From NCBI GenBank assembly GCA_008632985.1, contig QPGO01000014.1:758289-822288 (forward strand): a DNA stretch of 64,000 nt, written 5' to 3'. The notes beneath the pieces were generated by a model. It searched no databases, had not been told where the DNA came from, and worked only from the letters and a program-made list of their open reading frames with translations. Of this stretch, positions 33,601 through 64,000 are shown piece by piece. The DNA comes from Psammoneis japonica (Eukaryota). A program made the translations under genes and the position numbers. Positions within the stretch are counted from its first letter, which is position 1. Each line of letters begins with the position of its first letter.

Positions 33601-34300
33601 AAAATGGCCTTTTGTCACTGTCGACTTGCCACGCACCTCCAATGTGCTTGTTGGATGCTCTTCAGGTGTGATTGCCACTTGATTGTGAACGTGGAAGCCA
33701 CTGCACAAACAACTCATTCACGATGGTGGGTTGCCACCAGGACCTTCTTGTGCACTCACTGACTGGGGCCGATTTTTCACTGCCGCAACTGGGTCTTTGG
33801 ACACAGTCGTGGGCCAGGGTGTGGCTGGCCCACTTTCTCTCCCTGCGATCATGCCATGCAGTCTCTGCATGTCATGCAACATCATGCAAACCCAACTGAC
33901 CAAAGAAAGCTTGGTCATCAATGAGCACTTTCATGCCTCAGCCCTCACACACAGACTCCACATGTGAAAGCACAGCAGGGCCTGCTGGGGGGGATGCCAC
34001 ATTTTTTTAATTCTGAAATCACCCCACTGCATCCAAAGGCTTGGCAGCGGTGGCTGTGGTGCTGTGTTGAACACTTGGGTGTTGCCACATGGGCATCACT
34101 CCCACAGTGCATGTTCAATGGAAAGCAACAGCAGTGTCGGTCTGTACGATGATTTCTACATACATGTGTTTTGTACCTTTGTCTGTCACTGCCACCTCGC
34201 TCCAGCCCGATCCCAAGCATCGCACAGACAGACTGCCACTGCGATTTTCCTTGCTTGCTCGCTTGGCGACACGCGACACGTAGCCGCGCGCGACACGATA
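30620..34300. mobile_element. Block C: decayed retroelement-like DNA with ~255-bp degenerate direct repeats
   Basis: TpA/CpG-depleted. 30655-30913 and ~32338-32584 are diverged direct repeats ending ...cacttttctctcatgt..aatgagatcaagc. Family not determined. Confidence 0.65.
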
Positions 34301-39683: not shown

Positions 39684-41423
39684 TTAGATCTTGCCTCTGC
39701 CAAGGATGAAGGGCACTGCGCAATCAATGAGATTCAGCTCAGGTTCGAGCGACCTTCCCAGCCCCTCCAAGACCAATGTACTGATCACAATATTTGCCAT
39801 AGAGGGATCAACTTCAACGCCATGTGTCCGGCATAGATCCAAGACGCGGTTCAAGAGCGATCCAATCTTCACTGCTCCCAAGGTTAGACCCTTCTTTCTT
39901 CGATCATGAAATTCAGAAACAATGGCCTGTACTCCATGAGCGAACGAGTCGACACAACCCTCAGTCTCACTGCAAACTTCATACTGCGCCCTCGACACCA
40001 TTAAGCGCCCGGCACGATCGCCATCATTTAGAACAACCGCTTTGAACAAGTCGCGCAGATTCTTCTGGTCATTACTTGTCAACGACATGGCAATACCGGT
40101 ATCAACAAAGACAATTTTATTCTTGCTCTTCCCTTGGTCGGTTCGTTCGGTTTGTACAAAGACATTTCCAGGATGCAAATCACAATGGACAAAGTTATCC
40201 ACAAAGACCATTTTCAAAAATGCGCGCAACAGGGGGCCTGCCAGTTCTTTGCGACGCTTCAGTCCTTCCTTTGTTTCGTCCTGAAGGTACTCTCCAATGG
40301 GCTTGCAATCCTCGATCAACTCTTGCACCAAGACATTCGATGTAACCCAACCTTCCATTGTTTTTGGGAACGAAACGGACGACGCGAAGGCTTGTGCTTC
40401 TTCTTGTGATTCATCCTTGCCAAAAAAGTTTTGTCGAAAAGTTATGAGATTCCGTCCTTCAACACGCAAGTCAGCCTGGAGGCGAAGAAGCTTTCCAAAG
40501 TTTCGAGCCACTTGTGGCAGATTCACATACTCAAAATAGTTTCCAAGGAACGGTGCATTATGGAGAAATCGAGCGACGGACTCCATAAACTTCAAATCCC
40601 ATTCGATCCATTCTTCAAATCTCGGGTGAAGTATCTTGATTGCCACTGGTCTTGTATTATTGTCAGGAGTGACGAGGTGACCTCTATACACTTGAGCCGC
40701 AGATCCACATCCAATAACGTCGTGTTTCTCAACCTGCAGACCCAATTCTCGATAGTTGTCTCCGAAAGCCTTTTTCAAGACCTTGTGCGTGTGTGCCCAA
40801 GAATGTGTGAAACCTCGGTCATGAAATTTTGCAAAGTGGTTGCACAGAGTGGGAGGAAACAAATCTCGTCTAGTTGCAATCCATTGCGCTAGTTTGACAA
40901 AACATGGGCCCAAGGCGTGGATTTGTTGCAAGGTGAACCACCATGTCAATCGAGAAATTGGATTATCCTCAGCAGACTCAAAGAGACGAGACGATGCGAC
41001 GCTCGCTGGTCCCAAGATCAGGATGGGTGACATTCTTAACGCAACTTCGGTAGAGCGCAAAGACACAACCCATATTTCCCACAAACGCTGAAAGAAATGC
41101 CTTATTCGACGCGCCGTTCGATGAATCAAGCCTCTGTCTCTCTCGACTATAATAGTGCTGCATGCAAGCGGTGTGCAAACTCGTGGCTGCAATGCCTCTT
41201 TTCTTCTTGTATTCCAGGTTTCTTGGCTACAATGTTGAGAGATAGATATCAAACCGTTGTTGTACCGCAGTGTAGGGGTGGCGAAACACTTGTTGTATGT
41301 TGTTGACCTTCCTGTCCACGTGTGACCAAGCCGTTGCCGACTCCTCCCAGATGTTGTGTGACCTTTCAACTGTGGCGACAAGCTCTTCCGTGATGCTCTC
41401 AGCATTCCTGATATATATAACAT
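39684..41423 (-). CDS. ABC1/UbiB (ADCK2-like) atypical kinase, probably mitochondrial
   Basis: GPCFVKLAQWIATRRDLFP, IGCGSAAQVY, VAIKILHP, FVHCDLHPGN, LVLEGLGRSL. Arg/Ser-rich N-terminus. Confidence 0.93.
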   Translation of the reverse strand: MLYISGMLRASRKSLSPQLKGHTTSGRSRQRLGHTWTGRSTTYNKCFATPTLRYNNGLISISQHCSQETWNTRRKEALQPRVCTPLACSTIIVERDRGLIHRTARRIRHFFQRLWEIWVVSLRSTEVALRMSPILILGPASVASSRLFESAEDNPISRLTWWFTLQQIHALGPCFVKLAQWIATRRDLFPPTLCNHFAKFHDRGFTHSWAHTHKVLKKAFGDNYRELGLQVEKHDVIGCGSAAQVYRGHLVTPDNNTRPVAIKILHPRFEEWIEWDLKFMESVARFLHNAPFLGNYFEYVNLPQVARNFGKLLRLQADLRVEGRNLITFRQNFFGKDESQEEAQAFASSVSFPKTMEGWVTSNVLVQELIEDCKPIGEYLQDETKEGLKRRKELAGPLLRAFLKMVFVDNFVHCDLHPGNVFVQTERTDQGKSKNKIVFVDTGIAMSLTSNDQKNLRDLFKAVVLNDGDRAGRLMVSRAQYEVCSETEGCVDSFAHGVQAIVSEFHDRRKKGLTLGAVKIGSLLNRVLDLCRTHGVEVDPSMANIVISTLVLEGLGRSLEPELNLIDCAVPFILGRGKI

Positions 41424-41819
41424 ATTATGTTTGACGGTAACCTTGTCGGCTTGCCTGCTTACTCTCTAGAGAGAGGAGTCTGAGAGTATCAATGAAAGAA
41501 CGCCATTGCGTCAGCTTGAAGCGACCGACGATCATCGGCATGCGATGTGCGCCGTGTGACGTCATCGGATACGGTCCGCCCGTCCGTCCACGAGCGTCCG
41601 TCATACGTCCGTGCCGAACGAAATACGTCCGTCCGTCAACCAGGCACACAGACGTCTGCACATCGCTCGTCAATCTTCTCTGACCCTCATTCATCATCGC
41701 ATTCGACCATGTCGTCGGCGCTCGACGACCTCCATCACAAATCACGACGGTGCGAGTTGGAGTGTCCTGTACCATAAAGTTTGAAGACCTTTCATTACAG
41801 CAGTGCGTCCAAAGCAACA

Positions 41820-43799: not shown

Positions 43800-46600
43800 C
43801 CCCGACACGACACCGCGGCTGTGTGGTTGTTCTGTGCCTGGTGACTGGGGAAAACACCTGGGGACATTGGCACTCTGGCGGCAGGGAGAAAGTTGCCACT
43901 GCAAGCATTCATTGAGTGAACTTGTGCATGATGGGCTCAGCTGGGAGAGATGACAAAAATGATGCAGAAGCATCTTGTCATCAAGGCAAAAAGCAACAAA
44001 CACCGCCTTTGGCCAAATTGGTGTCAATGCAGGCACAAGAAGAAAGGAGGGCCATGGCAAGGCTGAGGCACTGAGGTGCCACAGAGTGGAGATGTCAGAA
44101 GCACTGAAAACCCAAATTGGCCAGACAAGAGAAGTGATGGCCAAGCAAAGGAGGCTTGGTCATGTGGGCTGGCTGGATGCTGTGGCGATGCGGGAAAAAT
44201 GCTGGACATGGCATCGTGGGAAGCTGCCAGAAAAGAAGGTGGCTGAGACAATCCCATGGGAGATCTTGTGTCTGCCCAGCAGATTGACAGGTCTCTGCAA
44301 GCAAAGTGATTGGAAAGGACTCTGCAGTTGTGTGCATTCGCTGCAATCAACCCGGCGACAGGATGGTTGGTCAAGATTGTGGAAGCATCTCAACAACAAA
44401 TCTGGCCATGTGGGTGCCCATGGCCAAGCAAGGCAACATGTGACCACAGCACAGACTTTCAGCAGAGTTCAGCCAGACAATCCAAAATGACTGTGGTGCC
44501 AAGAAGCAGAGGCCGTGAGGAGAGGCGCAAAGTCCACAGGCAAATGCCACCATGGAACACACACACACCAGATGCTTGGAAATGTGGCACATTCATTTTC
44601 AGCACAGAACACAGAATTGGATAAGAAAGACCCATGGAGCAGCACCCTTTCAGCCACAGCTTTCACCACACACACCACAGCATGGGAAAATCCAGCGCAG
44701 CTGGTCTTTGGGTGCAATGCAGTTTTGTGTCTGTTGCCCATCATGACAAGTGAAGTGTGTCCAAGACAGAAAGCAGAAGCTGACATGCTCAAATGCCAAT
44801 GTGAGAGCACAAGACAGAAAAAGCACTGACACACCCCATGGCAGTTGGTGCTTGTCAAACAAGAACAAAAAAAAAATGTGGGGCTGACTGTTGTGCTGGT
44901 CCTGCCAGAGTTGTCTGTGCAAATGACAACAGCACACCATGCACACCAGCAAGGGCATCTTGCCACTTGTCATCCTGAGTCATGGGGGAGTGTGCAGTGT
45001 GTGCCTTGCTGGCAACATGGCAAGACAGTGCAGCCCCATGTGGTGCACACTGCAGCAGTGTCAGCACACACCATGGAAGCACAGGGGTTCCCTGTGGCTT
45101 GATGACCCAGGTGTTTCAGATGAGAACCAAGCAAGTGTCCATGCACATGCACATTGATTGGCCATTGATTGTCAAACTTTGGGTTGACAAGAGAACAAGC
45201 TGAGAATGCTGCCCTGAAAGGAAAAGCAACTGGCTCATCAGGAGCAACTGTGCTCATCAGAAAGGGCAGGCTGAACTTGACAAGAAACACCCACCTGAGC
45301 TGTGTTGTTGTTCAGCGCAAAAGGACACAAAAGCAACTTCAAAATGAGAGGCAAATGCAAAAATGCAGCAGCACTGCCCCAGGCACCACCAAGGGCCAAG
45401 GCCAAAGCCACATTTCACAAACATCCTGACCTTGAGTTGCTTGTGCTCATCAGGATGTGCAAAACACTTGCAAGCTGCAACTTGAATGATCAGGAGAATG
45501 TTGATCAAATCATGGTGTTGCTGTTGTGTGACTCTCAAGTTTGCACTGTGATGAGATGGGTCCTCAATGTGCCAGTGCATGCCTTGGCCAGTCAATGCAT
45601 GGTTGGCAGTCAGAAGCTGCTTCCCCTTTGTTTGTCGCACAGCTGCCTGAAACTGTTCCCATGCCTTGCATGGGGAGCAACATCAGGTGACATTTGAGGC
45701 GGCATTTGTTGGGCAGGAATGTCACCCTTTGTGCCCACATGCTGCCATTCCCTGATCATTTGGGTCAAAGAATCCCACCATCTGCAAGGCTGGATCAGCA
45801 GCTGGCTGCCGGTCCATGTGTTGTGTTGCACAGGACGCACCCTTGTGCTGACAGCAATGTGGCATGGGTCATGGGGGCCATGTGACAGAGTGGGGCAATT
45901 GCCCACAGAGTGCATCACCCACAGTGTGTTTCACACAAGTGCATGGTGGGCATTCCCACCACCAAACGGTGATGGCAACACACCCAGGCATGTGGACTGG
46001 TGTGTCATGCAGTGTGTGGTGTCCACATGCAACCCCAGACAACCCCTGCTGCTGGGGCATCAGCGTGGTCTTCCACTGTCATGACTTGGGGCATGGGGGT
46101 GCACTCCATGCATCCCTTGAAAGGGCCCTTTGGTGGTGCGAGCAAAGTGCTGACAATGGGGGGCATCCTGTTGCCACAAGGCTGCTGGCCCAAAACCTGC
46201 TGGTTGTGTCGCACAGAGGCGTGGCGGCTGCTGTTCTGGTGGGAGCTGGCGGGGCACTGCCTGCACCAGTGGCTGATGTTGCAGTGGCTGCAGTGCCACT
46301 TGGGCTGACACCAGCTGCTGTGGTGGTGGTTGCTGCTGTTGCCATGCAGCTGTGGCCATGCCACCCGTTTCGATGGCTGCAAGCCACCTGCACCAGCAAC
46401 AGCCGGCGGTGCCGCTCCTCCTGCTCCTTGGTGGTCTGCCACAGCAAACAAGGAGAGTGGAAGGGCATGCCAAAGGTGGGCCTGTCTTCATCCTTTCAAG
46501 TCATCTGCTCATTGTTGTCATTGCAACGACAACAAAGAATGACGAGCGTTGGTCAGATGAACAGAACAGAAGGACAGGAGGCATTCGGGCGCCTGTCCGT
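43800..46600. mobile_element. Block D: decayed TE fragments
   Basis: TpA/CpG-depleted. Contains a Gypsy integrase/LTR relic, and a Gln/Ala-rich segment loosely similar to 60750-61560. Confidence 0.7.
44160..45060 (+). mobile_element. Older Gypsy relic related to Gypsy 2 (integrase, PPT, LTR start)
   Basis: IPWEILC, INPATGW, DPWSSTLSATAF, PAQLVFG. catgggggagtg-tgcagtgtg at 44981 equals the PPT/LTR junction of Gypsy 2 (reverse complement of 54877-54897). Confidence 0.85.
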
Positions 46601-46676: not shown

Positions 46677-47975
46677 ATGGCGACCATGGCGGCTCCTGCC
46701 GACAGGAAGAGGGGAAATGGGCGCAAGGGGTACCTTTCGTCCATCTTCTTGACCGGACTGTCTGCTTGCTTGTTGGATGGGGTCTAGGTGTGGGCTTTTC
46801 CTTGCCATGATGCAGCTTGATGGCAGCAAGGCAAACCGCTACTACAATCTTCATCCACTCATCGCCGGCAATGCACAGCAAAATGCCAATAGTAGTAGGG
46901 GAGCGAAAACAACTCTAAATCAACAAAGCAGGCAACCTCTTGTCCTCCCCCTTCCACACTGTGTCAAGTATTCTCATCGTCCCGTGGAACATCTCAAGTT
47001 GCACAACGTGACCATCGAACCTTGGATGTTGCCCGTTGTGAAAATGTCCTTTCTCAAGAAGTCAACATTATCCCGTCATGATGGTCTCTATGCATTTGAA
47101 ACGTATCTACAAGGATTTGAGGGTAGCGTTACCTTTACGTGGATTGCAATTCTGAATCGCTTGGCATCGAGACACAACGACCACATTGTGTTGGATGCAG
47201 GTATGAACACTGGCTTTTATACTACACTCACGGCAGTCATGGGCTTTTCGGTACATGCTTTTGATATTCAGCTGGACTGTTTTGATGTTGCTAGTTTACT
47301 TTTGAAAGGAAATGGTGTCGAATCAAACTGTAACTTTTATCATTTAGGATTGTGGTCCAATCGCTCGACAATGACAGTGCAGGAAGGCTGCGATCCTGGG
47401 AGAGGTGTGGACAATTATCAAGAAAGGACAATAGGTACGGACGTGTGGGATCATCGAACACACAATGTCACTGTTTTGCCACTCGACACTTTCTTGGACT
47501 CGGTGGACGACAACAAGCGGATTGCCATTCTCAAAATGGATATTGAAGGATCGGAAATTTATGCCTTACAAGGACTATCCACGCATTACCTCTCGCTTGT
47601 ACAAAACATTATTATGGAATGTGCCTTGCAACGAATTAGACGAGTTGGTTCCACGATGGAACAAACAATATACGAGTTTGAGCGATTAGAACAGAGTGGT
47701 TTACGGCATACCTGCTGCACCAGCCGAGGATACCTAGGAAGGACTGGCGGAATGAAGATCATTTAGTAGAAACATGGGGAGTCCATGCTCTGCCATCCTT
47801 CCACCCGGTTCTTGGCGCATCGATGGTCAATCAAACAATTGACAATTTGTCGTCGAACGTGATCCTTTGGAAGGTCGCGGATTGGAACATTCTCTTAACG
47901 AAAGGAGCTTGTGGGTTAGCCTGCAACCTGTTCTTCACCAAGATGTCTGCCAATCGTCACTTGCCTCCGAGATGA
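46677..47975 (+). CDS. FkbM-family SAM-dependent methyltransferase (apparent frameshifts near both ends)
   Basis: VLDAGMNTGFYT, VHAFD, V.VLPLDTF, ILKMDIEGSE..AL.G. The C-terminus continues after a 1-bp shift at ~47700. Start uncertain. Confidence 0.85.
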
Positions 47976-48198: not shown

Positions 48199-49685
48199 CT
48201 AGAAACATTGGCTACAGCACTCACAAAATACTTTTGAAACACAGTCTGCCTCAAGTGTAGCAAGAGTACCATTCGCCACCCTCTCACAAACTGCGCCAGG
48301 CATGAATCCTCCCAGATTGTTATCCTGGAGCAAGAGACGTTTCAGCAACGTCATTTCTCCAACTTGCTCGGGAATGAACCCCAAGAGTTGATTGGAGCTC
48401 AAATCAAGCTCCACCATGCTTTTCAACTCTTGAATTTCGGAAGGAATTGACCTGTAATGTTGCAATTGGACAGGGACAGCTTTTGCAACGACTCCAAATC
48501 ATTGGAAAATGCCGGCAATTCTCCACCAAGCCTGGGATTCTTGTCTAGCAAAATCTCTGTCAAGTCATCACTACGCAACAACGACATAAAGGCCAAATCC
48601 CCCACCAAGTCTGCCTGTGCAATTTCCAAAACTTGTAGACGTTCTAGCTGACCAATTTCCTCTGGAACAGACGAGTCGTATTGATTTCCACTCAACACGA
48701 GTGTTTTGAGATTACTCAATTTCTCAAAGACGCTGCCCCGCAGCTCTCCCGTAAAAAGTGTAAAGGAGCAATCCAAGGTTGTCAATTGTGTCAAGAGTCC
48801 AATCTCTGTAGGAATACCCTCGTCATAGGCAAAGTTGGTTCCAACGAGAAGCAACTCTTGCAATTGATCAAGTTGTCCCAAAAAGTCATAGCCATTGTCC
48901 GAAAAGGTGGGATTGTCGGTCAAATCCAATCGCACTAATGAATCCTTTAATAGAATAATTTCCTCAACAAAACTTCCCGCTACATTGTTGTTTGCCAAAT
49001 CCAATGCCGACACTTGTCCATTCTCATTGCAAGTGACGCCTTGCCACGTGCATTCGTCGTCCTCGGAAACCCACCCATCGTCTCGGTTCCAACCCGCCAA
49101 GTCGGGATTACGAGACGATGCCAAGGTTCCAAAGTATATACAAGCCAGCGCATAGCGCTGAATAACCGAAATTGCAGTCAATCGTTCCGCACTCGTGTCT
49201 TGCAAAAACCTCAGAGCTAACGATTGATGGGTACCCACGTCATCAAACTCATCGCCCCCCTGCAGGGCTACCGACGAGAGCAGATTCAAGAGCGAAAGCG
49301 TTGGCGATGACGAGGGTGAAGCCGTACTGGGAGAGGCCGTTGGAGATATAGTAGGTGCAAACGATGGAGCAAGTGTACCGGTCGGAACGCTTGGAGCACT
49401 AGTGGGAGTTGGAGTAATGCTTGGCTCAAATGTAGCTGGTGCAGTCGGTAGAGTGGTTGACAGCATTGACGGATTTGGAGAAATAGGAGCCAAAGTTGGA
49501 GGAGAAGAAGAAACGGGCCGAAGACTTGGTGGAGGTGATAATTCCTTAGCCGCATTGGAACTAGATCCATTGTCGTCGTTCCCAATAAGGACAACGCACA
49601 AAATCACGGCTATAATTGCTGCAATCATCAAGAGCAACACAACAATAATGCCACCGTTGCGGCGCTTGGCTGTGCACTGCATCAT
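48199..49685 (-). CDS. Membrane-anchored leucine-rich-repeat protein with Pro/Ser/Thr stalk
   Basis: N-terminal TM helix; PT/PS stalk; QRYALACIYF, W.S..DEC.WQGVTC cap; IPTEIGLLTQL LRRs; C-terminal ADC...V.CECC..C. One frameshift at ~48445. Confidence 0.9.
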
Positions 49686-50580
49686 GCTGCTTAGACGTAA
49701 AACGAATGAACGAATCAATCAATATACAGCCTATTGTTGATATCGACGTCAATCAACTTTCTAGTGTTCGAACGACGACAACAACAGCATATGCAACGAC
49801 AACTCGAAAACGCAATGTTGTTTGTTATTTCAGCGAAAAGATGGCGGCAAAACTTGCCGGTGTGACAAGTGAAAAGATTCCCGCCAACAAAGCATTGAAA
49901 TATATTCGATTTTTAATAAGAGGATAAGCGTCATGTGCGCGCGCACAACGGACAAGGGATTTTTCTCGAGAAGAGCGGCCGTGCTGTTTCTCTAGCGTAT
50001 TCTGTGCATGTTGGGTCCTCTCTACTCTAGAGCTAGAGTAGCTATTCTATCTACAGCATCTATCTCTAGAGAGTATCTCCTGCGAACATGTTGTGACGAA
50101 AGGTTCATCTCCACAAATAGCCTTTCTTGGGGAGACCGTCACATTAATGTCACGGCCAATTGAAAGGACCAAAGAATTTCTGGTCTGCTGAATCCTGGGC
50201 ATGCGACATGCGGGACCAAAGAAACTGTTTCAGGTAGACGCCAGCCAGACGCGTGCAGCTTGATTCATGATTCGACAAAAACATGGCCAGGGGACAAAAG
50301 AAGAGCGTTCATCTTGTGCCATTGGTCCCAATGGCGAAAGGGACACAAGAGCTTGTTGCTGGTTTGCGGGTGTTTTCCCGCTTGAATTTTGAAATGGAAT
50401 CTTTTTGGACCTTTTGTTCGCGAGCTTTCACACGCAACGCATCTACCAGGAATGCTTCTGAGGAGCCTACTCGGTTGCATGTTGCACACGTTCTAAAGAC
50501 CGGCTTAGCAAAAAATCGTCTCTGAGGAGCACTTTGTATGCATCTTGAGCCTTCTTCCTACTCGCCCATTCTATAATGTA

Positions 50581-52155: not shown

Positions 52156-53568
52156 TTAGACTTTGGCCCGCAAAGCAAACTCTTTCGCTCTTTGCTTGTA
52201 AATATACTTGCTAAGCACATCATGGCGATCAAACTGATGAACCACAGGTGACAGTGTCCCATCCCAGTTATGAACAGTCCAAGTGATTGCATTCGGCTTT
52301 GCAATAGCTTGCCGTTTCCCCACTCGTCCAGTTTCGCCGTTCTCATGGCACCCAAATTATTCATGGCGCCCAAGCCTTGACCAAACACCGTAATGCTTTG
52401 AATAGTTTTGGCATTTGCCAATTTGTTGGAATAATACAAGTAATTGTGGAACCCCTGATCGGCACCCATGAGTTTCACCAAGGTCTCGTCCGACTCGGCA
52501 ACCATGGCACGCAGATACGTTTCCAAGGCAATTTGCTCTCCCATGGAAGATCCTGAACAAATGGTGGGCTTGTTTTCCAAGACATGAATCACGTCTTCTC
52601 CATAGGCGTTTGTGATCCATTTGCGATTCTTGGGTGATTGGCCAATCCGAGTTGCTTCAGTGTTTTCCTGTAGTGTGCCGAGAGGAGCAGATGAATTAGA
52701 TTATGATTCTCCAAACGCTGAGATTACACAGTCATACTTACGCCGAAAAAATGAAGTAAGCCATCTGGTTCATCCTCGTTGCTTCGTGGGACATTTGCAA
52801 AAGGATCTGTCTGAAAATACGAGTCTCTCGCGTCAATCAGCATGAGCCAGCTGTGAGGCTTGTAGTGGAGGCTCCACATCCAATACAATTCATACCGAGT
52901 CGTTTGCAAGGTTCGCGGCGGTCGTGGGTCCTTGACTAGCGCCCCTTGATTGTCTTTGTACATGTCGTGTATTTGACAGAGTCGGATGCCACCCTTGGCA
53001 CTATCAACCGCCTCCATCTCAGCATTAAAGCACGACAGCGTTACAACATAAATCACCACATTAAAGCCGTCTTGGTTTTGTTGTTGCAACAGATAATTCT
53101 TGACGCTTCGCTTCTTTAAATCCTGTGATGCAATTGCCAATACACGTCTCCTGTAAAGCCCGTTTCCTTGAGAGTTTCCAAGAAGCACTGGTAAATGTGC
53201 AAGTCATATTCTGCAGCAAACGCAAACACGGCATCCACGTCGGGCCGGTGCTGACCATGCTCTGGTTGGAGACCCGCAAGTGCCGTGGGACCCACCATGG
53301 CGGAGGGCTTTGGAAATACTGAAGGTCCAACAACAGTGTGACTGGAAATAGTAAAGAGTTCCAACGAATGGTATGGATCAAAATTAGGTGACGCAGCCAA
53401 TCGACGACGACTCGATTTCTGAAGAACATTCGTGTTGGGAAGAAGGGCTCCTGTCGTTGCGTGCGATGAATAGAATGATAAACATCCACAACACCAACAA
53501 GAATGTCGTGTAAAGATGGCAAAGCTGACCGCCAACAAGAGAGGCGGTGGATGCGTCCAGGTGGCCAT
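52156..53568 (-). CDS. Putative glycosyltransferase-like type II membrane protein; one intron (~52668-52738) and apparent frameshifts
   Basis: TGFTGDV, RYELY, LIDARDSYFQTDPF, ICSGSSMG, DQGFHNYLYY and VVHQFDR motifs. Hydrophobic N-terminus. Confidence 0.7.
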
Positions 53569-54451
53569 TGTCGGGCTCGTTGAAAGTTGAAATGCAATCA
53601 GGCGAAAAAGAGAAAAAACAAAAGAAAAGAAAAAGCTGCAAAACGAACAAACAGCTGAAACAGAAAGAAAAAAGAGAAAAAGCTGGAAAAAGACGAAAGC
53701 CACACCTTAATCTGGCTCCTCATCAGCGGCACTGGGCAAAGACTCGGAGGATGGGGACAGGGTCTTCAAGTTCTTTCAGGACAGGATCAAAGCTGTGTTC
53801 TTTGTGGAATTCAGCCCGTGCACCAGTGTCCTTTCTTGGCAGTGCTGGCGCATGAGAACACGCAGCTCCTCCTCGCTTCTTGTTTGGCGCCTTCTTGCTG
53901 AGCAGAGTGGAGGTCACAGCAGAAAGCACCAGCCATGGCAGGGTTCACAAGTGCCAAGGCTGCATCTGTGGGTGTGTCAGGTCCAAAGCAAGACATGAAC
54001 TTGTGAGTGTTCAGGTTGCATGAGCACGAGGCATCATCTGACATGTGTGTGGTCAACACCAGGAGGGCCCGGCAGATGGCAGATGTGCCCCCCTTGAGTG
54101 CCAGCAGGCGTTGGTGGCGGCATTGGTGCAGGGCACTCATGTGCAGGATGGCAGCCAGTGGTGGTGTGCTCTCAGATGTCAAAACAGTGGGTGCCGGCAT
54201 TCTGGTGGAGCAAGGCACCAGCAAGCTCCATGTCGGAACATTGGTGGTTTGTCCCCACGGGTGTTTGCTGACCGGGTGATGAGGGTGCGGCAGATGGATG
54301 ATGCCAAGAGTGGGTGCAACCAGACTGCAGGTGCTGGGCTGCTCAGAATGGTGGTCACAACAGAGTGCAATGGAGCATTTGGAGTGAGTGGCAGCAAGTG
54401 CAGAACTTTGGTTGAGCCAGGCAGCTGCATTCTGCCAGTGCCAAGCCCTCC

Positions 54452-54885
54452 TGCCCTGTGCATGTGCTGGGTGCTGAAAAAGAAGATGTGTTACGACTTT
54501 GTCGTTGTGAAAATTATGAGCTAGTTTAGAGTAGAGAAAATGGGATCGTGCGAACAGGGAATCTTGCCAAATCCCTGTTCGTTCGCATTTGGATCGCATT
54601 AAATCGATCGTGCGTTCGCATTGTGGATCGTGCGAATCAAGCCATCACGCGCCATGCACGAGTGATGTCATCGTGTGGAATCACGCTACCATCGTGGGCC
54701 AGACGACGGGCCAGTGTGCTTCACATGGACGCTCTCTTAGCATCCTTCTGGAATTGCCTGAGACCTGGAGCCACGCCCTCCTGTGGTCGTGCTTCCCAGG
54801 TGCGTGTTAACAATGCTGCATTGCCACGTGCAAGAGGCTTGTGCACGGTCTCGCCGTGTTGTCTCCAGCAGCGAGGCACACTGCA
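54452..54885 (-). repeat. 3' LTR of Gypsy 2
   Basis: Direct repeat of 59321-59752. Confidence 0.95.
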
Positions 54886-54929
54886 CACTCCCCCATGATC
54901 AGGGCCGTCAAGTGACAGGATGTCTTGCT

Positions 54930-57900
54930 GGTGACAGGGTACAATCTGCCGTAGATTGCACGCATCTATCAGCGCTCCGTTCTGGACACGCAACGTGCCG
55001 TTGTCACATGCACAGACAACTCTGGCGGGTCCTGCACAGCTGTCAGAACCGCATTTAGAGGATTGTTCCTGTTTGATGAGTGCCAATTGCCCTACGGTGT
55101 GTTGATGCTCCTTGCGTTTCTGATTTTCACGCTTGTTGTTTAAGTGGACAAGCTTCTGCTTTCTGGTTTCTATGTGCTTCCACTTGGCACAATGGGCAAC
55201 AGATGAAACCGCATCGCGTCCGAAGACCAATTGCACGGGACTTGCACGCGTGGTCATGTGCACCGCAGCTCCAACAGCGAAGGCCACTGCGGAGAGGATG
55301 CCACTCCATGGGTCATCTTCGTCCAGTTCCACATCCTGCACTGAAAAGGAACGCACCATGTTGCCAAGTGTCTGGTGCACACATTCCACTGTGGCATTTG
55401 CCTGTGGATTCCGTTTGCTTGTGGGTTTCTTCAAAATCCCACAGTCATTTTTAATCATCTGGCTAAATTCTGCCATAAATTCTGTCCCACGGTCACAAAC
55501 CACCTGGGTTGGCCACGGACATCTGCACAGCCAAGTTTGTTCTACGACGTTTGCTGCGACGTCTGCACATTTCGCAGACACTTCTTTAATCTCGAACCAC
55601 CCGGTTGCTGGGTCAATCATTGTGACTGCCCACAATTGCAAGGTGTCCTTTCCACGTCTTTGAATTTTATGTGGCCCCATCATGTCCATGCATGGAGTCT
55701 CCCATGGAATTATCTCTGTGACCTTTTCTGGTGGCTTCCCATGATGCTGCGTTCGGCGTTTTGTCTTCTGGCATCGATCGCACTTAACGCACGTAGAATG
55801 CACCGTAGACCTCATGCCAGGCCAATGGAAGTGCTGGGCAACAGACATTTCCGCACGTGTCTCACCTGGATGACACAGTGTCTCGTGGTGCCATTCAGCC
55901 AGCGGAACCTGCAATGACTGTGGCACTGCGATTTTGTCCTTATGACAGATTAACTGTCGTGATGACCCTCCCCCACGACACGCGCGAATGGAGCAGTCGG
56001 ACGAGTCCTTGGCTCGTGAGAGCAGGCGCTTGTCCTTTTGTTGTGCTTTTTGAATGCGCTTGAAGCTAATGGGCAGAGACATCTCATCTTGCGCGTCTGC
56101 ATTAAAAGCTTCATGCAAAGGACGACTCGATGGAGTGTCTTTTACATCTGGATTGGCCTCGGAAGGCAAGCTGGGTGCTGGTCGAAGGCGACTAAGAGCG
56201 TCAGCGACTGGGTTGTGGGTGCCCTTAACATGGCGTAATTCGGGACCGCATTCTTCGCACATTGACCGCCAGCGCATAACGCGCTCGGCATTGAACACTT
56301 TGTGCGTAAGATTTTTATGATCAGCATGTGCAATTGTGCGATGACCAAGGAGAATTGTTCGAAATTCTTTCAACGTCTCCACAATGGCGAGCAATTCTCT
56401 CTCCGTTGTTGTGTGATTTAATTGCGCACTGTTGAGCTTTCTGCTGTAAAAGGCGACAGGTTTATTATCTTGGGATGTGACTGCTCCCAATTTACATTTA
56501 GAGGCATGGCATGTGTCTCAAAGGGTTCATTAAAATCAGGATGTGACAACAAAACATCATCCGATGTCACCCGTTTAACGGTTTCGAATGCCTCGTCTTC
56601 AACGGACGTCCACTCCCACTTAACAGTCTCGCTTGCGAGTCGTGTTAGCGGAGCCAAGACTTCAGAACGTCCAATCCACGTGTCTCGGCAGCAGTTCACC
56701 ACACCAACAAATGAAAGTGGGTCGCGTTCATTGGTTGGGGTCGCGATTCGCTTGATGGCGTCGACTTTATCAGGTGTTGGTCGCACTCCGTCTCTGTCAA
56801 CCAGATGACCCAAGCAATCTAATTGGGTTTGACAGAAGTGAGATTTAGTTGCGTTAACTTTTAGTCCTGCTTTCTGGACCCTCAACAAAACTTCTTCAAG
56901 TTTGTTGAGGTGATCTTCACAGGTGCCTTTCGTCACGACGAGAAGGTCATCTAAGTGCGTTCGAACAAACGACAGATCTTCAAATAAGCCTGACATGCGT
57001 TCTTGGAAAATGTCTGGCGAATTGCACAATCCCATGGGCAACACCTGCATCTCATGCTTGCCCCACGGGAAGATGAGCATGCAGAGCTTCTTGCTGTCAG
57101 TGTCCAATCGGATGTGACAATGGCCCATGTTTGAATCCAGTGATGTAGCCCACACAAAGCCTTCGAGCTTGAGCAGCACATCTTGGATGTGAGGAATCGG
57201 ACAAGGCAATCGCTTGATCCGTTTGTGCAGCTCTCTGAAATCATTGGTGAAGCGCACCGTTAAATCTTTCTTCGGCATGACAAATGATGGAGCTGCCCAT
57301 TGGGATCGGTTGACGCATTTGAGAACACCGATGCGCACCAGGCGTTCTACTTCTTTACGCAGCGTAGCTTCGCACGCATGAGGTGCTTTACACGGACGAG
57401 CGTGGCATGGTTCTACACCCTCCTTGAGTTGGATGTGGCAGGGTTCTCCCTTCCATTCTCCCAATGTCCCATCAAACAAGGACTCATGGCGTTTCAATGG
57501 TGCCAAAAGGTCGTTTTGTTGAACCACAGAAAGTCCTGTTGCCCCTCGCGTTGTGTCCTCGAGGCAGGCCGGCGCGCACTCAGCATCCAAAATGCGCGAA
57601 ATCCGGTCGGTTTCCGAAGATGAGGCTTCTGGATCTTGAAGATAGAAGGAGGTTTCTACCGCAGCATCTGCGTGCCTCATTGGTGCTTCTCCATTGACTG
57701 GTGGCCACTCTGTCATCCATTTAGAGAAGACAATGTCAATGCCTTGCGTCTCCAGAATGTCACGTCCAATGATCACATCGCACTTGCCCAACTTTCCGTT
57801 GTGTGCGTGGACGGCATGCTTGAGTTCTGCAGTTTCGGACAATTCTGGCAACCGAAATTTAACGGTGCAGTCGTCAGACGTGCCAAACGAGCCTGCTGCC

Positions 57901-58145
57901 GTGGTCCAGTTTGTCTCAGCCGTTGAATGGCTTCGCAGACATTTGCAGCATCGACTGTCAAGCAGGGTGCTGCCAGCGCCACTGTCTGGCAGTGCCTCAA
58001 TGGTTTGAGTCTTGCCCTTGCCATGTTTGGCATTCACAGCCACAAACAAGATTGGAGTGAGATGAGTCTTTTTAACTCGTTTGCGGGATTGGCCCACAAC
58101 ACGTGTACGATGGTAATTCAGTTGTTCATTTGTGCATTCATCCAA
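54930..58145 (-). pseudogene. pol: Gypsy 2 pol, frameshifted near 56500, with pervasive Tyr->Cys/His
   Basis: ALPDSGAG, DVIIGRD, DFRELHK, LPMGL, THLDDLL, AFYSRKL, DHKNL, LCHPG, IDPATGWFE, DRGTEF, NPQANA.VE. Confidence 0.95.
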
Positions 58146-58189
58146 TGTGTCAAAACTGCCTGCATCGTGTCGGCCCCCTTCTCAGGCAT

Positions 58190-59226
58190 CCGAATCTTCG
58201 GAATCACTTAAGTTGAGGTCGCGGAAGTGATCAAGCTCCTCCTCACGTGCCTTGCGCTTTTTCTGAGCGTTGGCAAAGAACTCCTCGACCTTCGATCCGA
58301 TGAGAGTGTCAATGTCTTCCTCATTCCGAGGTTTTGCATTGGGCTTGCCGCCTCCATCATTGGAATGTCCAGTCTTGACACATTTCACGTGGTGCTTGAG
58401 CTGACGGCAATCCTCCGTATGATGTCCACAGTTAGTCCCGTGCAGCACACACTGACTTCTGGGTGTTCCGTTGGGTCGTGATCAACGACTCAGGATTGTC
58501 CGTTCTACGTCCCCGCTCACGTGGAACCTTAGCATGTTGGTCCTGGTTACCTTCGGCAAGCTCGACCTGCTCGATGCGCTCGCAGAACTGTGCAAATTCG
58601 GCAACAGCATGTGCCAACGGGTCAAAATTCTGCAGCGTCATGAACTTCTGCCATGCGTTCGGCACACCGCACTCGAACACATCGCACAGTTCGTCATTGG
58701 GCAATGGTGCTGGTGTTTCTCCATCCTCCGTCACGGGTGGAAACTGAGAGACACAGCCGTTAATTTCAACAGCCCTCGCGACGCAGTCACGAGCAGAAAC
58801 CTCTGCGGGCTTGCGCATGAAGCGCCTCAGACAACGCTTCTGCAATGGCACCGCCCCATGTGGGAAGATGCTTTCCTTTAGCTTCGCGACGCATGCTGCG
58901 TACGTGGCGTTGGTTTGGGATGCCTGCTTGTCAGCGGCATTGTCAAATGACGTCAGAGCATCGCCCTGCAGTGGGTCACGCACAAGGGCAAATTTCGCTG
59001 GCCCGGTCGTGATGTTTTGTCCTTCGTGCACGCGATCCACGTTGCGCAGAAAGATTGGGAGTGTCTCGCATGTAGCCGCAGAAAGGTGCGGAATGCCCAT
59101 CTCGTGCGTTGGACCATCTGGATCAGCAGGGTTGTTACGTAGCTTGAACGTCTGGCACTCGCCCTGCTGCAGCTCTTTCTTCTCCGGCCGTGTGAACGGA
59201 ATCAGCGGCTCAATCCGCTTCTTCAT
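58190..59226 (-). pseudogene. gag: Gypsy 2 gag (frameshifted; C-terminal CxxHGxxxxHxxxxC knuckle)
   Basis: LQGDAL..F, LQKRCLRRFMRKP, VPNAWQ, FCERIE; C.LHGTNCGHHTEDCR in ORF 58182-58448. Confidence 0.85.
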
Positions 59227-59320
59227 GGTCGTTTTAAGATTTGTCGGTCCTGCCAACATTTCGTAGTTTCGTTTCTGTAGATTTCGTTACCTCGCACAAC
59301 ATGCGGGAGCAATGTTGCTG

Positions 59321-59752
59321 TGCCCTGTGCATGTGCTGGGCGCTGAAAAAGAAGATGTGTTACGACTTTGTCGTTGTGAAAATTGTGAGCTAGTTTAGAG
59401 TGGAGAAAATGGGATCGTGCGAATGGGGAATCTTGCCAAATCCCCATTCGTTCGCATTTGGATCGCATTAAATCGATCGTGCGTTCGCATTGTGGATCGT
59501 GCGAATCAAGCCATCACGCGCCATGCACGAGTGATGTCATCATGTGGAATCACGCTGCCATCGTGGGCCAGACGACGGGCTAGTGTGCTTCACACAGACG
59601 CTCTCTTAGCATCCTTCTGGAATTGCCTGAGACCTAGAGCCACGCCCTCCTGTGGTCGTGCTTCCCAGGTGCGTGTTAACAACACTGCGTGGCCACGCAC
59701 AAGAGGCTCATGCACGGTCTCGCCATGTTGTCCAGCAGTGAGGCATGCTGCA
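59321..59752 (-). repeat. 5' LTR of Gypsy 2
   Basis: Direct repeat of 54452-54885. Confidence 0.95.
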
Positions 59753-61846
59753 CTCCTTGTGTGTCATGCTGTGAGCTGACCAGCACTGGCTCCATGCACC
59801 ATGTCGGCCATTTCACCATAGAGGAAGGTGAGGTGCCAATGTGTGCAGACTTGTGCCCCTTCCTGAACCATGGCAGCATCTCTGTGCAGGCTGGGCTGAC
59901 AGACTTGCTGTTGGGCTGGATGTCACTCCAGGTGGGCTGTCTGTGAAGCTGCCACAGCCCTGATGATGGTGGAACAGCACAGCCAAGTTGACAGTTTTGA
60001 GGAGGTCAACACCACTTTCTGCACACTCACTCAGTTTGTCTGTGATGGCCTGTGCCACCTGGGGCACTGGTGGGTGACACTTTTTGGCAGTCAGGGTCCC
60101 AGAGGACATGTGGGCAGGGCATGCTGGAAGGCAAGTTGATGTCAGGGCAGGTTGCACATGGCAGCCACCCCCATGCTTGCACCCTGCCATGCCTTGCAAC
60201 TGGTCTCACACCAACTGCAGAGCAAAGCATCCTCCTCCTCAGTGTGAGGTGCACTGTCTGTTGCCAAACCACAATTTCCATCACACATGCATTTTTGGTG
60301 CAGCTGGGTGTCAGCAACACTTGGTGCTGCTGAGTTCTGACTGATCTTGTCAGACTGGGCATTGAGGGCTCATTGGGTGGCTGTGACTTCTTCAGTGGGG
60401 GCTGATGCCCTCAGACAGGTCATCTGGAATTGAGGAACTGAGGAGATGCACTTCAGCAATCTTCTTTGAGAGAGCCAACAACATCTCAGTGCAAAGTGGG
60501 CATGGCCCAACTGCTCACAGGTGTCCTGCATGTGAGCTTGGACAGTGATCTGCTGTGTGCCTCCCTTCTCAGCACATGCTGTTGCTCTGTCACTGTGTGC
60601 ACTGGTGGCAGGTCCTGCTCTTGTGTGCCACCTGACAGTGGTGCATGAGTTTTTGCACAATCACACCAAAGCATTTGCTGGGAGTGCCGCTCTGCTCATG
60701 ATCTTGCCACTGTTGATCCTCCTGTTGTGTTGCATGTGTGTCAGAAACCAGGGTGTTGACCCCAGCTGTAATCTGCTGAGCTCCCATGGCAAGTGGCATC
60801 ATTTTGTGAGGTCTGGCAAGTTCCCAAAGACTGGGGTGTGTGGTGTGTGCACGCACATGTGCACCAAAGATTTGCACATCTTGGAGGGTGACAATGGGTG
60901 GCAAGATGGGTGCCTGGGCTGCCAATTGTGAAGGCTGATTTGCAGCCTGGCATGTGCGAGTGCACGCTGAAGCCAAAAAGTGAAGGGGGTTGGGTTCCTC
61001 CACCAGCAGAGCTTGTGGCACCAGCTTGTCAGTGTTGCAAGCATTGCTGGCCATTGGGGTTGGCTCCTGTGGTGTGTGTGCTGTGTGCTGCATTTCCCTG
61101 AAGAGGCACCCCACAAGCCACGCAAGTGTTGGCGCGCTGCCGTTCTGAAAGGGGCCCGTGGCAGCAAATGCAAAGAGCTGGTGACATTGCACCACCTGAG
61201 CACCCAGCACCTCCAGTCCAAATGCCAGCTGTGACAGCAATGGCACAGCGGCCAGGGGCACCCATTGCTGTGCTGGCAGTTGTTGTTGTCTCGCTGGCTG
61301 CTGCTGCTGCTGTGGCAGTTGCTGCTGTTGTTGTGGCTGCTGCTGTGGCTGTCCAGCTGCAGTCTCAGTGACAGGAGGCAGCACCACTTCTCTCCTTGAT
61401 CTGCCATGGCAAATTGAAGATGAGAGGAGAGAGGGGTGCACCTGTGGTGAGCCATGTCATTGTCCTGTTCAACTGTCTGCTTGTTGTTGTTGCACCAACA
61501 ACAAAGAATGACCTTGTCGGCCAGCAGGGAAGCCAAGTGTTGGACGTCTGTCTTCGATGGGCACTTTCAAGCCAATCAACAGCCCTTTCGTGATCTTCCC
61601 TGTTCTGCAGTCCAGCGCCAGTGCGCACGCACGCAAGCAGTACAGTACACACGCGACGCACGAGGCCTCGTCGAATCGACATTTTACGTGTATATCTATG
61701 ACTACCGTAATGACGCAATGACTGACGCGAACTGAAAACATAAGCCCTTTGGTGCCCTTGAATGCCGTGTGCTATCAAACAGAAAAAGTTGGAAGCTGCG
61801 AGTGGAGTCAGTTTTTTGTGTCATTCCAATCGAAAATACCGCAACG

Positions 61847-64000
61847 ATGATGAACGCCCTACCTTTTATTCCTCTTCGAGCCGCTCGTGTGATTCTCATT
61901 ACCCTCCTCGTTCTTGCCGTTTTGAACGAAGCCCAGTCTGCCCCTACCGTGGGGGTTTATGCTCAAGATGATTTGAATGGCCCTGGATTAGGCGATTGTA
62001 ATGACGAAACTATCAACATATTATCAAGCCTGGAGAACCTGAAACAAACCAACGGAGATTTCAGCAGCTACACCATTGACACATCAATAGTCACGCTAGC
62101 CGATCCCAATCTTGAATCCAAGCTACACAGCTTTAGTGCTTTTATCATGCCGACAATTCAAACATTCTCTCTCAGCCAGCTAGATGGCTGGGGTACTTAT
62201 TCACAGGAGGCATTGAGGACTTACGTTGAATGCGGCGGCGTTTTAGTTGCAATGTCAGCACAGACCAACAGTCTTCTTTTTTTAAACACAGTTTTCCCTG
62301 GCTGGGACATCGCTGACGTGGGCTACTGTAGTATTGGAGCGACTGTCTCCCTGAATTCCGCCAATGCTGCAGGAACGACGTTTGCCGGGGGACCGAGCTC
62401 TGTGACTTGCATCTCCACTACCAAATATCTCTCATGTGGGACTGTCCCTTGCACCCCAATATACGGGACGACGACTTCGACAGTAGTGGCACAGGTTCCC
62501 TACGGCGATGGTTACGTTGTTCTTTATTCGTGGAGCTTCTATAACGGTGGCCACGCTATCAATGTTCCGGGCGTTGGCACCCACGTAAACTGCGCCTACA
62601 GAAACGACGATTGGGCCACAGAAATCCTTCCTCGTGCTCTTGAGTTTGCTGAACAAGTTGAAGCTCAGAAAACGACATGTCTCTCAGAGAGTCCTTCGGA
62701 AGCTCCCAGTTTATCTCCAAGCAATGCCCCGTCTACAATCCCATCGTCTGAGCCAAGTATGGCTCCATCGGTATCTCCATCGTCCGAGCCAAGTGGTTTG
62801 CCATCTTTGACACCTTCAACAGAACCTTCTGCTCCCCCCTCAAGAGTTCCAAGTGCGGCTCCAAGTGATTTACCTTCAACCACACCTTCAGGTCAACCTT
62901 CGACAGAACCATCTGGCACCCCTTCTGCCATTCCAAGTTCGTCTCCCAGTTATGAACCTTCGACAACTCCATCATCAGAACCAAGTGACACTCCATCGTT
63001 GATGCCTTCAACCAGGCCCTCGACCACCCCGTCTGCTGTACCGAGTGATGTTCCCAGTGATGTTCCTTCGACGATACCTTCAGTCGAACCAAGTGACACC
63101 CCGTCTCTCACCCCATCGACTTCACCGTCTACAATGCCGAGCTCAGCTCCTAGTGATGTGCCTTCAAACGCACCATCAGCGGAACCAAGTGATGTACCTT
63201 CTCTCATCCCATCGACCATGCCATCTATAGCGCCGTCATCAACGCCTTCTTCATTTCCCAGTGGTGCGCCATCGACATCACCGTCGTCTCAACCGAGCGC
63301 AGCTCCAAATAGAGAGCCATCAGCAATACCTTCTGCCCAACCAAGTGCAGTTCCAAGTAGCATGCCCTCTAAAACACCTTCAGAAGAACCAAGTTATATG
63401 CCATCTGTCACCCCATCAACTGAGCCATCTTATGCACCATCGGCAGTTCCAAGTGGGGCTCCCAGTGATGTACCTTCCACAAGTCCATCTTCGGAACCTA
63501 GCAATATCCCATCTTTGAAACCTTCAACATTCCCCTCGGGTACCCCTTCTGCCGTCCCTAGTGCAACTCCCAGTGATGCACCTTCAATGATTCCTTCGAA
63601 CCAACCCAGTGATGCCCCTTCAAGGGTCCCGAGTTTGATGCCAAGTGTTGTCCCGTCGACTAGTCCGTCAGGTCAACCTTCGACAAGCCCGTCAGCGGTA
63701 CCGAGTTCGACACCAAGCGATATCCCGTCAACTAGTCCATCAGCTCAACCAAGTGATGTGCCTTCTGTACAACCGTCTACAGTGCCTTCAAAAAGCCAGT
63801 CAGCGGTCCCGAGTTCGGCACCAAGTGATGTCCCGTCGACTAGTCCATCAGATCAACCAAGTGACGTGCCTTCTGAAACACCGTCTATGATGCCTTCGAC
63901 AAGCCCGTCAGCGGTCCCGAGTTTTGCACCTAGTGATGACCCGTCGACTAGTCCCTCGGGTCAACCTTCGACAAGCCCGTCAGCGGTCCCGAGTTCGACA
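61847..64000 (+). CDS. Secreted/cell-surface protein with globular N-terminal domain and long PS-x-x mucin-like repeat (runs off window)
   Basis: MMNALPFIPLRAARVILITLLVLAVLNEAQSA signal peptide; ~270-aa domain (ALRTYVECGGVLV); then SPSEAPSLSPSNAPS... repeats from ~62690 to the end. Confidence 0.85.
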   Translation, partial: MMNALPFIPLRAARVILITLLVLAVLNEAQSAPTVGVYAQDDLNGPGLGDCNDETINILSSLENLKQTNGDFSSYTIDTSIVTLADPNLESKLHSFSAFIMPTIQTFSLSQLDGWGTYSQEALRTYVECGGVLVAMSAQTNSLLFLNTVFPGWDIADVGYCSIGATVSLNSANAAGTTFAGGPSSVTCISTTKYLSCGTVPCTPIYGTTTSTVVAQVPYGDGYVVLYSWSFYNGGHAINVPGVGTHVNCAYRNDDWATEILPRALEFAEQVEAQKTTCLSESPSEAPSLSPSNAPSTIPSSEPSMAPSVSPSSEPSGLPSLTPSTEPSAPPSRVPSAAPSDLPSTTPSGQPSTEPSGTPSAIPSSSPSYEPSTTPSSEPSDTPSLMPSTRPSTTPSAVPSDVPSDVPSTIPSVEPSDTPSLTPSTSPSTMPSSAPSDVPSNAPSAEPSDVPSLIPSTMPSIAPSSTPSSFPSGAPSTSPSSQPSAAPNREPSAIPSAQPSAVPSSMPSKTPSEEPSYMPSVTPSTEPSYAPSAVPSGAPSDVPSTSPSSEPSNIPSLKPSTFPSGTPSAVPSATPSDAPSMIPSNQPSDAPSRVPSLMPSVVPSTSPSGQPSTSPSAVPSSTPSDIPSTSPSAQPSDVPSVQPSTVPSKSQSAVPSSAPSDVPSTSPSDQPSDVPSETPSMMPSTSPSAVPSFAPSDDPSTSPSGQPSTSPSAVPSST

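Follow-up and report, generated by a model that had tools for sequence, protein, structure and literature searches.

Repeat-induced point mutation (RIP) of fungi is a dinucleotide-specific transition hypermutation which inactivates transposons in place, turning CpA and TpG into TpA such that TA is enriched, stop codons are made and dating by long terminal repeat (LTR) divergence becomes unreliable. In animals, APOBEC3 and ADAR enzymes also leave context-dependent, clustered transitions in integrated retroelements, but they act on the cDNA or RNA before integration, so that their changes favour one strand and are shared by the two LTRs. The decay of CpG by deamination of 5-methylcytosine (5mC) likewise converts a palindromic dinucleotide into CA or TG in silenced repeats. 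Closest to the case described here, however, is a hypermutation of TpA in the chlorarachniophyte alga Bigelowiella natans, described only in 2026. The present work concerns Gypsy 2, a member of a high-copy Ty3/Gypsy family of LTR retrotransposons in the diatom Psammoneis japonica, which lies within 64,000 nucleotides of contig QPGO01000014.1 (GenBank assembly GCA_008632985.1, positions 758,289 to 822,288 of the forward strand). This 64-kb stretch is termed the window; the whole analysis is confined to it, and all coordinates are window positions, with position 1 its first letter. The reading favoured here, with a probability of roughly 0.85, is that Gypsy 2 was hypermutated after its integration, at the level of DNA, from TpA to CpA or TpG.

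For mutation-accumulation lines of B. natans, the main text of the preprint reports that 231 of 302 mutations fell in an integrated giant virus and virophage, 230 of these 231 being A>G or T>C, with every one of the 230 on TpA, at a de novo rate ~1000-fold over background (bioRxiv 10.64898/2026.01.13.699255). The same text describes TpA-poor coding sequences enriched for RT and DDE domains, as well as 124 clusters of TpA-poor windows, and an ADAT2-like deaminase is proposed (bioRxiv 10.64898/2026.01.13.699255). As far as that account goes, the likeness to the diatom locus is close: A>G and T>C changes at TpA yield TpG and CpA on both strands, only foreign- or repeat-derived regions are affected, and TpA is depleted in the long term with an excess of CpA and TpG. 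Indeed, by the 5% cut-offs applied to B. natans, 30 of the 64 1-kb windows examined here would qualify. The differences lie in the host, a diatom (stramenopile) here and a chlorarachniophyte there, and in the target, which here is a high-copy LTR retrotransposon together with old patches at TA observed/expected ratios (O/E) of 0-0.05, whereas the nucleocytoplasmic large DNA virus region in the preprint stands at 0.45. Moreover, the main text of the preprint has no match for CpG, trinucleotide, flanking or tyrosine, while a flank hierarchy, CpG co-depletion and erasure of tyrosine are all seen here; its changes, on the other hand, were observed de novo, whereas the diatom signature is known from sequence comparison. 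Literature searches turned up no report of TpA hypermutation beyond what this preprint describes, and none in diatoms. The window thus adds a second algal lineage, unrelated to the first, to a kind of process that is no longer unprecedented.

Gypsy 2 occupies 54452-59752 on the minus strand, 5,301 bp from LTR to LTR. The LTR termini are TG...CA with a 4-nt target site duplication (TSD) on both sides, as in Ty3/Gypsy LTR elements, and the Pfam matches of pol fall in the order protease, reverse transcriptase (RT), RNase H and integrase, collinear with 60 full-length homologues and including the DSG protease motif. These homologues are the best 60 of 120 full-length pol proteins listed by search, at 46-54% identity. 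Alignment columns at least 60% conserved were taken as conserved (636 columns covered by Gypsy 2 pol) and those at least 95% conserved as a strict set (334 columns).

Against this background the most conspicuous feature of the element is the erasure of its tyrosines. An initial annotation, made from the letters of the stretch, had put their number at about 4 in some 1,400 codons; the count is 5 Tyr, with 61 His and 59 Cys, in the 1,469 codons of three open reading frames (ORFs), namely gag, protease-RT (PR-RT) and RNase H-integrase (RH-IN). In pol (1,185 aa) the proportions of Tyr (0.25%), His (4.64%) and Cys (4.14%) each lie outside the range of the 120 listed homologues, in which Tyr makes up 2.95-4.54% (median 3.76), His at most 4.07% and Cys at most 1.87%. 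At the 32 conserved Tyr columns Gypsy 2 has Tyr once, His 15 times and Cys 13 times, where individual homologues, each tested against the rest of the 60, retain 75-97% of conserved Tyr; at the strict columns all 17 Tyr are lost. Overall, Gypsy 2 deviates at 165 of the 636 conserved columns and at 48 of the 334 strict ones (14.4%), as compared with 0-4.2% of strict columns in the homologues (median 1.3%).

The eight motifs quoted in the initial annotation all read as it had described when set against the 60 homologues. In THLDD, the YxDD motif of RT, His stands where all 60 have Tyr; both altered positions of GHCHI are Tyr in 60/60, that of WGKHE in 52/60, those of LDCLGH in 60/60 and 59/60, those of VNCCRD in 59/60 and 60/60, and that of EECGP in 31/60. 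The altered positions of AHADHKNL are Tyr in 39/60 and Thr in 60/60, and that of ALPDSG is Leu in 49/60. The annotation would have been undone had relatives carried His or Cys at the tyrosine positions, which they do not. Across the conserved columns the commonest replacements are Y>H (15), Y>C (13), I>V (11), T>A (8) and I>T (7), followed by L>P and V>A (6 each) and I>M and L>S (3 each), and these are the very classes that it had listed.

For every deviating column it was asked, codon by codon, which single base change leads from the codon of the consensus residue to that of Gypsy 2, with all other sequence contexts as the control. One step suffices in 120 of the 165 columns and at least two are needed in 45. 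The one-step deviations comprise 70 losses of TA (35 TA>CA and 35 TA>TG), 6 losses of CpG, 12 other transitions and 32 changes reached by transversion only, the last being ordinary divergence from homologues that are ~50% identical. The context is correspondingly narrow, with a 5' T at 35 of the 40 inferred forward A>G changes and a 3' A at 35 of the 38 inferred forward T>C changes, and the even split of the products indicates that both strands are hit equally. Read back in this way, CA or TG restored to TA repairs 70 of the 165 deviations. In this regard, the earlier proposal that the proteins fix the direction as TA to CA or TG holds, most TA in Gypsy 2 having been converted to one of these two products.

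The composition of the element points the same way. TA O/E is 0.29 in Gypsy 2 overall and 0.30 in pol, as against 0.53-1.04 (median 0.79) in 64 intact relatives from metagenome contigs; pol has a GC content of 0.51 against a median of 0.42 in the same relatives, and CG O/E still stands at 0.83-0.88 in Gypsy 2. None of 79 loci of metagenome relatives carries the hypermutation signature, their ratio of RTAY to YTAR (R, purine; Y, pyrimidine) being never below 0.44, with a median of 1.12, compared with 0.09 in Gypsy 2. It could be argued that the element is functional and that its low TA and Tyr contents are an adaptive or lineage-typical composition, since the host genes of the window are themselves lowish in TA (O/E 0.45-0.58). 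This is barely credible: Tyr is lost at columns where 59-60 of 60 homologues keep it, YxDD of RT among them, the deviation at strict columns lies far above the 4.2% that no homologue exceeds, the host genes show the reverse preference for flanking bases, and this copy carries two frame breaks.

The loss of TA is indeed strongly graded by its flanks. RTAY is lost fastest, with O/E of 0.05 in Gypsy 2, 0.02 in old TA-poor patches of the window and 0.80 in the relatives; the mixed contexts YTAY and RTAR follow (0.29, 0.06 and 0.73, respectively), and YTAR is slowest (0.57, 0.13 and 0.72). At the extremes, ATAT stands at 0 in Gypsy 2, 0 to 0.01 in the old patches and 0.74 in the relatives, while TTAA is almost spared, at 1.23, 0.29-0.30 and 0.70. 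Host-gene stretches have the opposite pattern, RTAY (0.54-0.68) exceeding YTAR (0.36-0.45), and it is this RTAY value which is to be set against 0.05 in Gypsy 2 and 0-0.03 across the old patches. As every Tyr codon is TAY, the survival of Tyr, 3%, falls well below that of TA overall, ~0.30/0.79. Tyrosine codons are therefore an easy measure of the process at the protein level, and the hierarchy, with RTAY fastest and TTAA spared, supplies a specific motif by which an enzyme might be sought.

The two LTRs of Gypsy 2 place the process in time. Across 435 aligned columns they differ in 27 (6.2%), and 24 of these fall in 17 sites at which each LTR has one of the pyrimidine-purine (YR) dinucleotides TA, CG, CA or TG: 7 are CA/TG, 4 CA/TA, 1 TA/TG, 3 CG/TG and 2 CA/CG, such that CG is involved in 5 of the 17. 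The remainder consists of one 2-nt indel and one A/C change, which makes 24 of the 25 substitution columns YR transitions. A site that is CA in one LTR and TG in the other cannot be reached by a single change and thus requires separate hits in the two LTRs on what had been TA or CG. Since LTRs are identical at insertion, their difference at 17 YR sites means that the process acted after integration, on DNA and on both strands. The process is, moreover, far faster than ordinary substitution (17 YR sites of the LTRs against 1). Dating by LTR divergence fails here as it does under RIP, the 6.2% difference concealing an ordinary substitution of just 0.2%.

These observations also bear on the notion that the changes arose before integration, by ADAR-like A-to-I editing of the element RNA or through an error-prone reverse transcriptase. 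Retroelement RNA is a classic substrate of editing, ADAR has a preference for a 5' U according to the main text of the B. natans preprint (bioRxiv 10.64898/2026.01.13.699255), and some of the load was perhaps inherited from a source copy. LTRs copied from one RNA would nevertheless not differ at 17 YR sites and one other base; the sense strand has as many T>C as A>G changes (35 each), of which editing of RNA would produce the latter alone; and non-coding old patches are hit, together with only half of a second element, Gypsy 1, the boundary lying inside it. A pre-integration origin is accordingly highly improbable, and neither the strand asymmetry nor the identity of LTRs left by APOBEC3 or ADAR is found. 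The signature of RIP is absent as well: there is no excess of TpA (TA O/E 0.29 in Gypsy 2 and 0-0.1 in old patches) and no new stop, but a stop lost. RIP, in other words, makes TA and stops where the diatom process destroys and removes them.

Post-integration hypermutation of DNA is confined, within the 64-kb window, to sharply bounded domains from which the host-gene stretches are spared. On both sides of Gypsy 2 lies a patch with TA O/E of 0-0.07 and CG O/E of 0-0.52, whose edges at ~53500 and ~61500 are sharp within 500 nt; Gypsy 2 was inserted into this older and nearly saturated patch. Gypsy 1, a younger Ty3/Gypsy element elsewhere in the window, also bears on targeting. Its LTRs differ in 10 columns, 8-9 of them TA against CA or TG and 0-1 ordinary, and the TA losses are all on the LTR at 21466-22054, which adjoins an old patch. 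RTAY O/E rises along the element from 0.07-0.23 at 21-25 kb (the pol half) to 0.8-1.36 at 25-28 kb (the gag half). This half-mutated state suggests targeting by chromosomal domain and not by repeat homology; the duplication dependence of RIP is not apparent, one LTR and the half adjoining it having been hit.

A related Gypsy family has left an old integrase fragment in the window which, set beside Gypsy 2, shows the end state of the process. At 5 YR sites where Gypsy 2 retains TA the fragment has CA in all 5; of 26 CG sites of Gypsy 2, 25 have ceased to be CG in the fragment, the states being 16 CA, 9 TG and 1 TA; and 109 of the 282 differences between the two are YR swaps. The old patches are opaque to annotation: of 81 ORFs of at least 110 aa within them, none has a match above the Pfam cut-off, the two sub-threshold matches being GIY-YIG (E = 0.004) and SPIDER (E = 0.0074). 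The GIY-YIG match could be the remnant of a mobile element bearing this domain, or chance. As TAA and TAG vanish and Pfam is blind to old copies, genome annotation must suffer in such domains.

Loss of CG accompanies that of TA. TA O/E and CG O/E fall together across the 64 1-kb windows (Spearman rho +0.84), CA/TG rising as TA declines (rho -0.92), and in old patches CG O/E falls to 0-0.3, as in CpG decay. The two losses are nonetheless dissimilar in kind. CG loss lacks a flank hierarchy, standing at 0.11-0.30 across all 16 NCGN contexts, whereas TA loss has a strong one; and in young elements TA is hit while CG is spared (CG O/E 0.83-1.1). CG loss, being independent of its flanks and lagging in young elements, is thus read as a separate, slower process in the same domains, probably ordinary deamination of 5mC. 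CpG decay on its own would explain 6 of the 120 one-step protein changes and 5 of the 17 LTR sites in Gypsy 2.

The principal alternative also takes the change to be a hypermutation of TpA in DNA, but as the by-product of a base modification placed at palindromic TpA in silenced chromatin, for instance hydroxylation of thymine to 5-hydroxymethyluracil (5hmU) or N6-methylation of adenine, which on mispairing or misrepair would give T>C or A>G, in parallel with 5mC at CpG. Dinoflagellates are known to carry 5hmU at TpA. The two dinucleotides that are lost, TA and CG, are palindromes which disappear from the same sharp-edged domains, the products of TA loss are symmetric, and the flank effect is not assignable to one strand, as would fit recognition of a duplex tetranucleotide. 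Set against this are the flank hierarchy that TA loss has and CG loss lacks, and the young elements hit at TA but not at CG, which make the two losses at least kinetically separate. The rule that a T precedes the A, furthermore, matches the U33-A34 context of TadA/ADAT substrates. On balance a modification origin is unlikely, although it is the alternative that we take most seriously.

In the mechanism preferred here for the hypermutation, a candidate TadA/ADAT-like or other DNA deaminase would act on adenine preceded by T (T[A]), converting A:T to G:C on both strands alike; it might be targeted to chromatin domains that are silenced, repetitive or foreign, as has been suggested for B. natans. 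Tyr, encoded by TAY throughout, is erased to His or Cys well ahead of TA at large, while TAA and TAG can only be removed, such that frames stay open as conserved residues are lost. Natural deaminases of adenine in DNA are not known to exist, and the adenine base editors of the laboratory were obtained by evolving TadA.

Sequencing reads covering the locus were available as contigs from three runs of one sample, built from exact 31-letter words, and are possibly the data of the assembly itself. In the unique flanks of Gypsy 2 contig depth is ~55, and the TA-free patch at 59724-61999 is reproduced with 3 differences in 2,276 nt. Over the Gypsy 2 region (54006-60008), however, the depth summed over 6,249 contigs is 12,000-24,000, as against ~55 in the flanks, or hundreds of copy equivalents at an identity of at least 85%; 1,464 of the contigs are at least 99% identical, 1,732 are 95-99%, 2,310 are 90-95% and 743 are below 90%. 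Places that differ among copies number 96-103 for each type of transition and 9-14 for each type of transversion. From the summed depth and the excess of transitions it follows that the family is high-copy, its copies differing as independent TA loss predicts. At 44515-45270, contigs with the depth of single-copy sequence depart from the window at neighbouring TG/CA doubles (45044-45, 45103-04 and 45267-68) and at a TA/CA site, 44622. This suggests that two versions of the stretch, be they haplotypes, strains or close paralogues, were hit separately, and hints at a process that went on after haplotypes or strains had split.

The reads are of consequence for the suspicion that the signature is an artefact of sequencing or assembly, TA and CG within repeats having carried modified bases that were miscalled, while the real DNA is still TA. 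Tests internal to the sequence, such as those with proteins and LTRs, would look alike under site-specific miscalls. Yet contigs of 31-letter words at ~55 depth agree with a TA-free and CG-free patch, and noisy long reads would presumably not give such a depth of words, so the read contigs speak against an artefact. Depletion is also graded by age and flanking base, CA and TG are fixed differently in the two LTRs, and in B. natans, going by the main text of the preprint, the signature emerged from de novo calls on Illumina reads of its mutation-accumulation lines. Miscalling is therefore very unlikely to account for what is seen.

Four points weigh against post-integration TpA hypermutation by an adenine-directed activity as put forward here. 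First, reads from a single sample, if they are those of the assembly, weaken the artefact explanation without removing it. Second, a source copy that was itself mutated could have passed on part of the load. Third, the loss of CG could belong to the same process and not to a separate one. Fourth, a strand test of the T[A]Y rule gave no significant result (Fisher p = 0.38), YTAY having yielded TG 15 times and CA 11 times, and RTAR TG twice and CA 4 times; at the protein level, Tyr after Y became Cys 9 times and His 6 times, and Tyr after R Cys 4 times and His 9 times. For this reason the hierarchy is stated only for the duplex tetranucleotide.

The anatomy of Gypsy 2 and the other features of the window are collected in Table 1. 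The limits 54930 and 59259 which the initial annotation had set on the coding region are the point at which intact homologues end and the ATG of gag, with the minus strand coding, and homologue ORFs begin at the same alignment position as the PR-RT ORF (58181). Its description of frames that stay nearly open is borne out in that pol has no in-frame stop, TA loss being able only to remove TAA or TAG or to turn TAA into TGA, whereby no new stop can arise; it has to be tempered in that pol has one frameshift and gag a second break. The contrast drawn with the nonsense mutations of RIP stands, since a stop has been lost and none gained. At 54925-54927 (minus strand), the end position of all aligned homologues, Gypsy 2 has CAA, and the frame continues for ~68 codons into the 3' LTR (ORF 54721-56517, with TGA at 54721-54723), which fits the removal of a TAA stop by this TA-erasing process. 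Gypsy 2 would thus probably have been killed by missense load, although the copy also has its two frame breaks and the lost stop. Other copies of the family in the reads show 1-nt indels at both breaks, with 1 nt missing at 58453 and, in part of them, an extra base behind 56507. The gag ORF has no Pfam match, and no tRNA primer site is recognisable in Gypsy 2, although a purine run precedes the 3' LTR.

Table 1. Positions of Gypsy 2, of TA-poor patches and of other features in the window.
Feature	Positions	Strand	Particulars
Gypsy 2 TSD, upstream copy	59753-59756	-	GGAG; abuts outer LTR end
Gypsy 2 5' LTR	59321-59752	-	432 nt, TGCAG...GGGCA; direct repeat with 3' LTR
Gypsy 2 gag ORF	58432-59259	-	ATG at 59259; open frame itself 58432-59286; frame break near 58432-58481
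Gypsy 2 Cys/His-rich gag end	58182-58481	-	Different frame; then in-frame TGA 58182-58184, directly ahead of PR-RT
Gypsy 2 PR-RT ORF	56418-58181	-	Pfam RVT_1 (E = 1.2e-16); HLDD where YIDD expected
Gypsy 2 overlap of both pol frames	56418-56517	-	Sole pol frameshift
Gypsy 2 RH-IN ORF	54925-56517	-	Pfam RT_RNaseH (E = 1.2e-20), Integrase_H2C2 (E = 2.1e-11), rve (E = 2.2e-4)
Gypsy 2 3' LTR	54452-54885	-	434 nt, TGCAG...GGGCA; purine run GGGGGAG just ahead
Gypsy 2 TSD, downstream copy	54448-54451	-	GGAG; abuts outer LTR end
Old TA-free, CG-poor patch, left of Gypsy 2	53501-54447		500-nt windows: TA O/E 0.04-0.07, CG O/E 0.26-0.52, CA/TG up to 2.06
Old patch of same kind, right of Gypsy 2	59757-61500		60001-60500 with TA 0 and CG 0
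Poly-Q-rich frame	60590-61456	-	Inside TA-free patch, adjoining PT frame
Open frame of PT disordered repeats	61736-64000	+	Pfam PT (E = 4.3e-26); internal tandem similarity
Old integrase fragment, related Gypsy family	44247-45084	+	tblastn; TA O/E ~0.01
Further TA-poor patches	1-8000; 12000-21000; 32000-34000; 44000-46000		Sharp edges; TA O/E 0-0.1, CG O/E 0-0.3
GIY-YIG match	14598-14978	-	17.9 bits against cut-off of 22.6; inside old TA-free patch
259-nt direct repeat	30656-30913 / 32338-32584		77.6% identity; around TA-poor stretch
Gypsy 1, younger Ty3/Gypsy	21466-28081	-	LTRs 589 nt, 98.3% identical; only pol-side half hit
SNF2 host gene	34670-39227	+	SNF2, bromodomain, RING and helicase-C domains, split over at least 2 ORFs
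SET-domain ORF	28919-30517		Near SNF2 gene
ABC1 kinase	39684-41465	-	Near SNF2 gene
FkbM-type methyltransferase ORF	46753-47766		Near SNF2 gene
LRR ORF	48423-49718	-	Near SNF2 gene

Among the other features of the window, the pair of 259-nt direct repeats may be the LTRs of an older element. The SNF2, SET, ABC1 kinase, FkbM and LRR genes of the window show no hypermutation signature. Two of these genes also speak for a diatom host: among the 120 relatives listed for each of the ABC1 kinase and the SNF2-RING helicase, those assigned to an organism (8 and 9, respectively) are all diatoms, namely Seminavis, Nitzschia, Mayamaea, Cylindrotheca, Fistulifera, Epithemia, Pseudo-nitzschia, Attheya, Chaetoceros and Bacillariaceae, at 44-56% identity, as compared with 69% for the top match of the listing, and B. 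natans was rejected as the host on these grounds.

Taken beyond this one copy, the results raise the prospect that diatoms have an active, domain-targeted defence by adenine editing of DNA, through an RTAY-preferring adenine deaminase or an equivalent, which together with methylation-driven decay of CpG drives transposons into a TA-free and CG-free state. This we advance tentatively, at somewhat short of even odds. Were it true, that state would be reached within the time of ~0.2% ordinary divergence, and the system would be a mirror image of fungal RIP; as the TpA signature occurs also in a rhizarian alga, it would be either ancient within the SAR (stramenopile, alveolate and rhizarian) lineages or repeatedly evolved. 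A natural DNA adenine deaminase would, in itself, be of wide interest. A second lineage, far more saturated and with LTR retrotransposons as the target, suggests that TpA hypermutation is a widespread genome defence of algae and not a curiosity.

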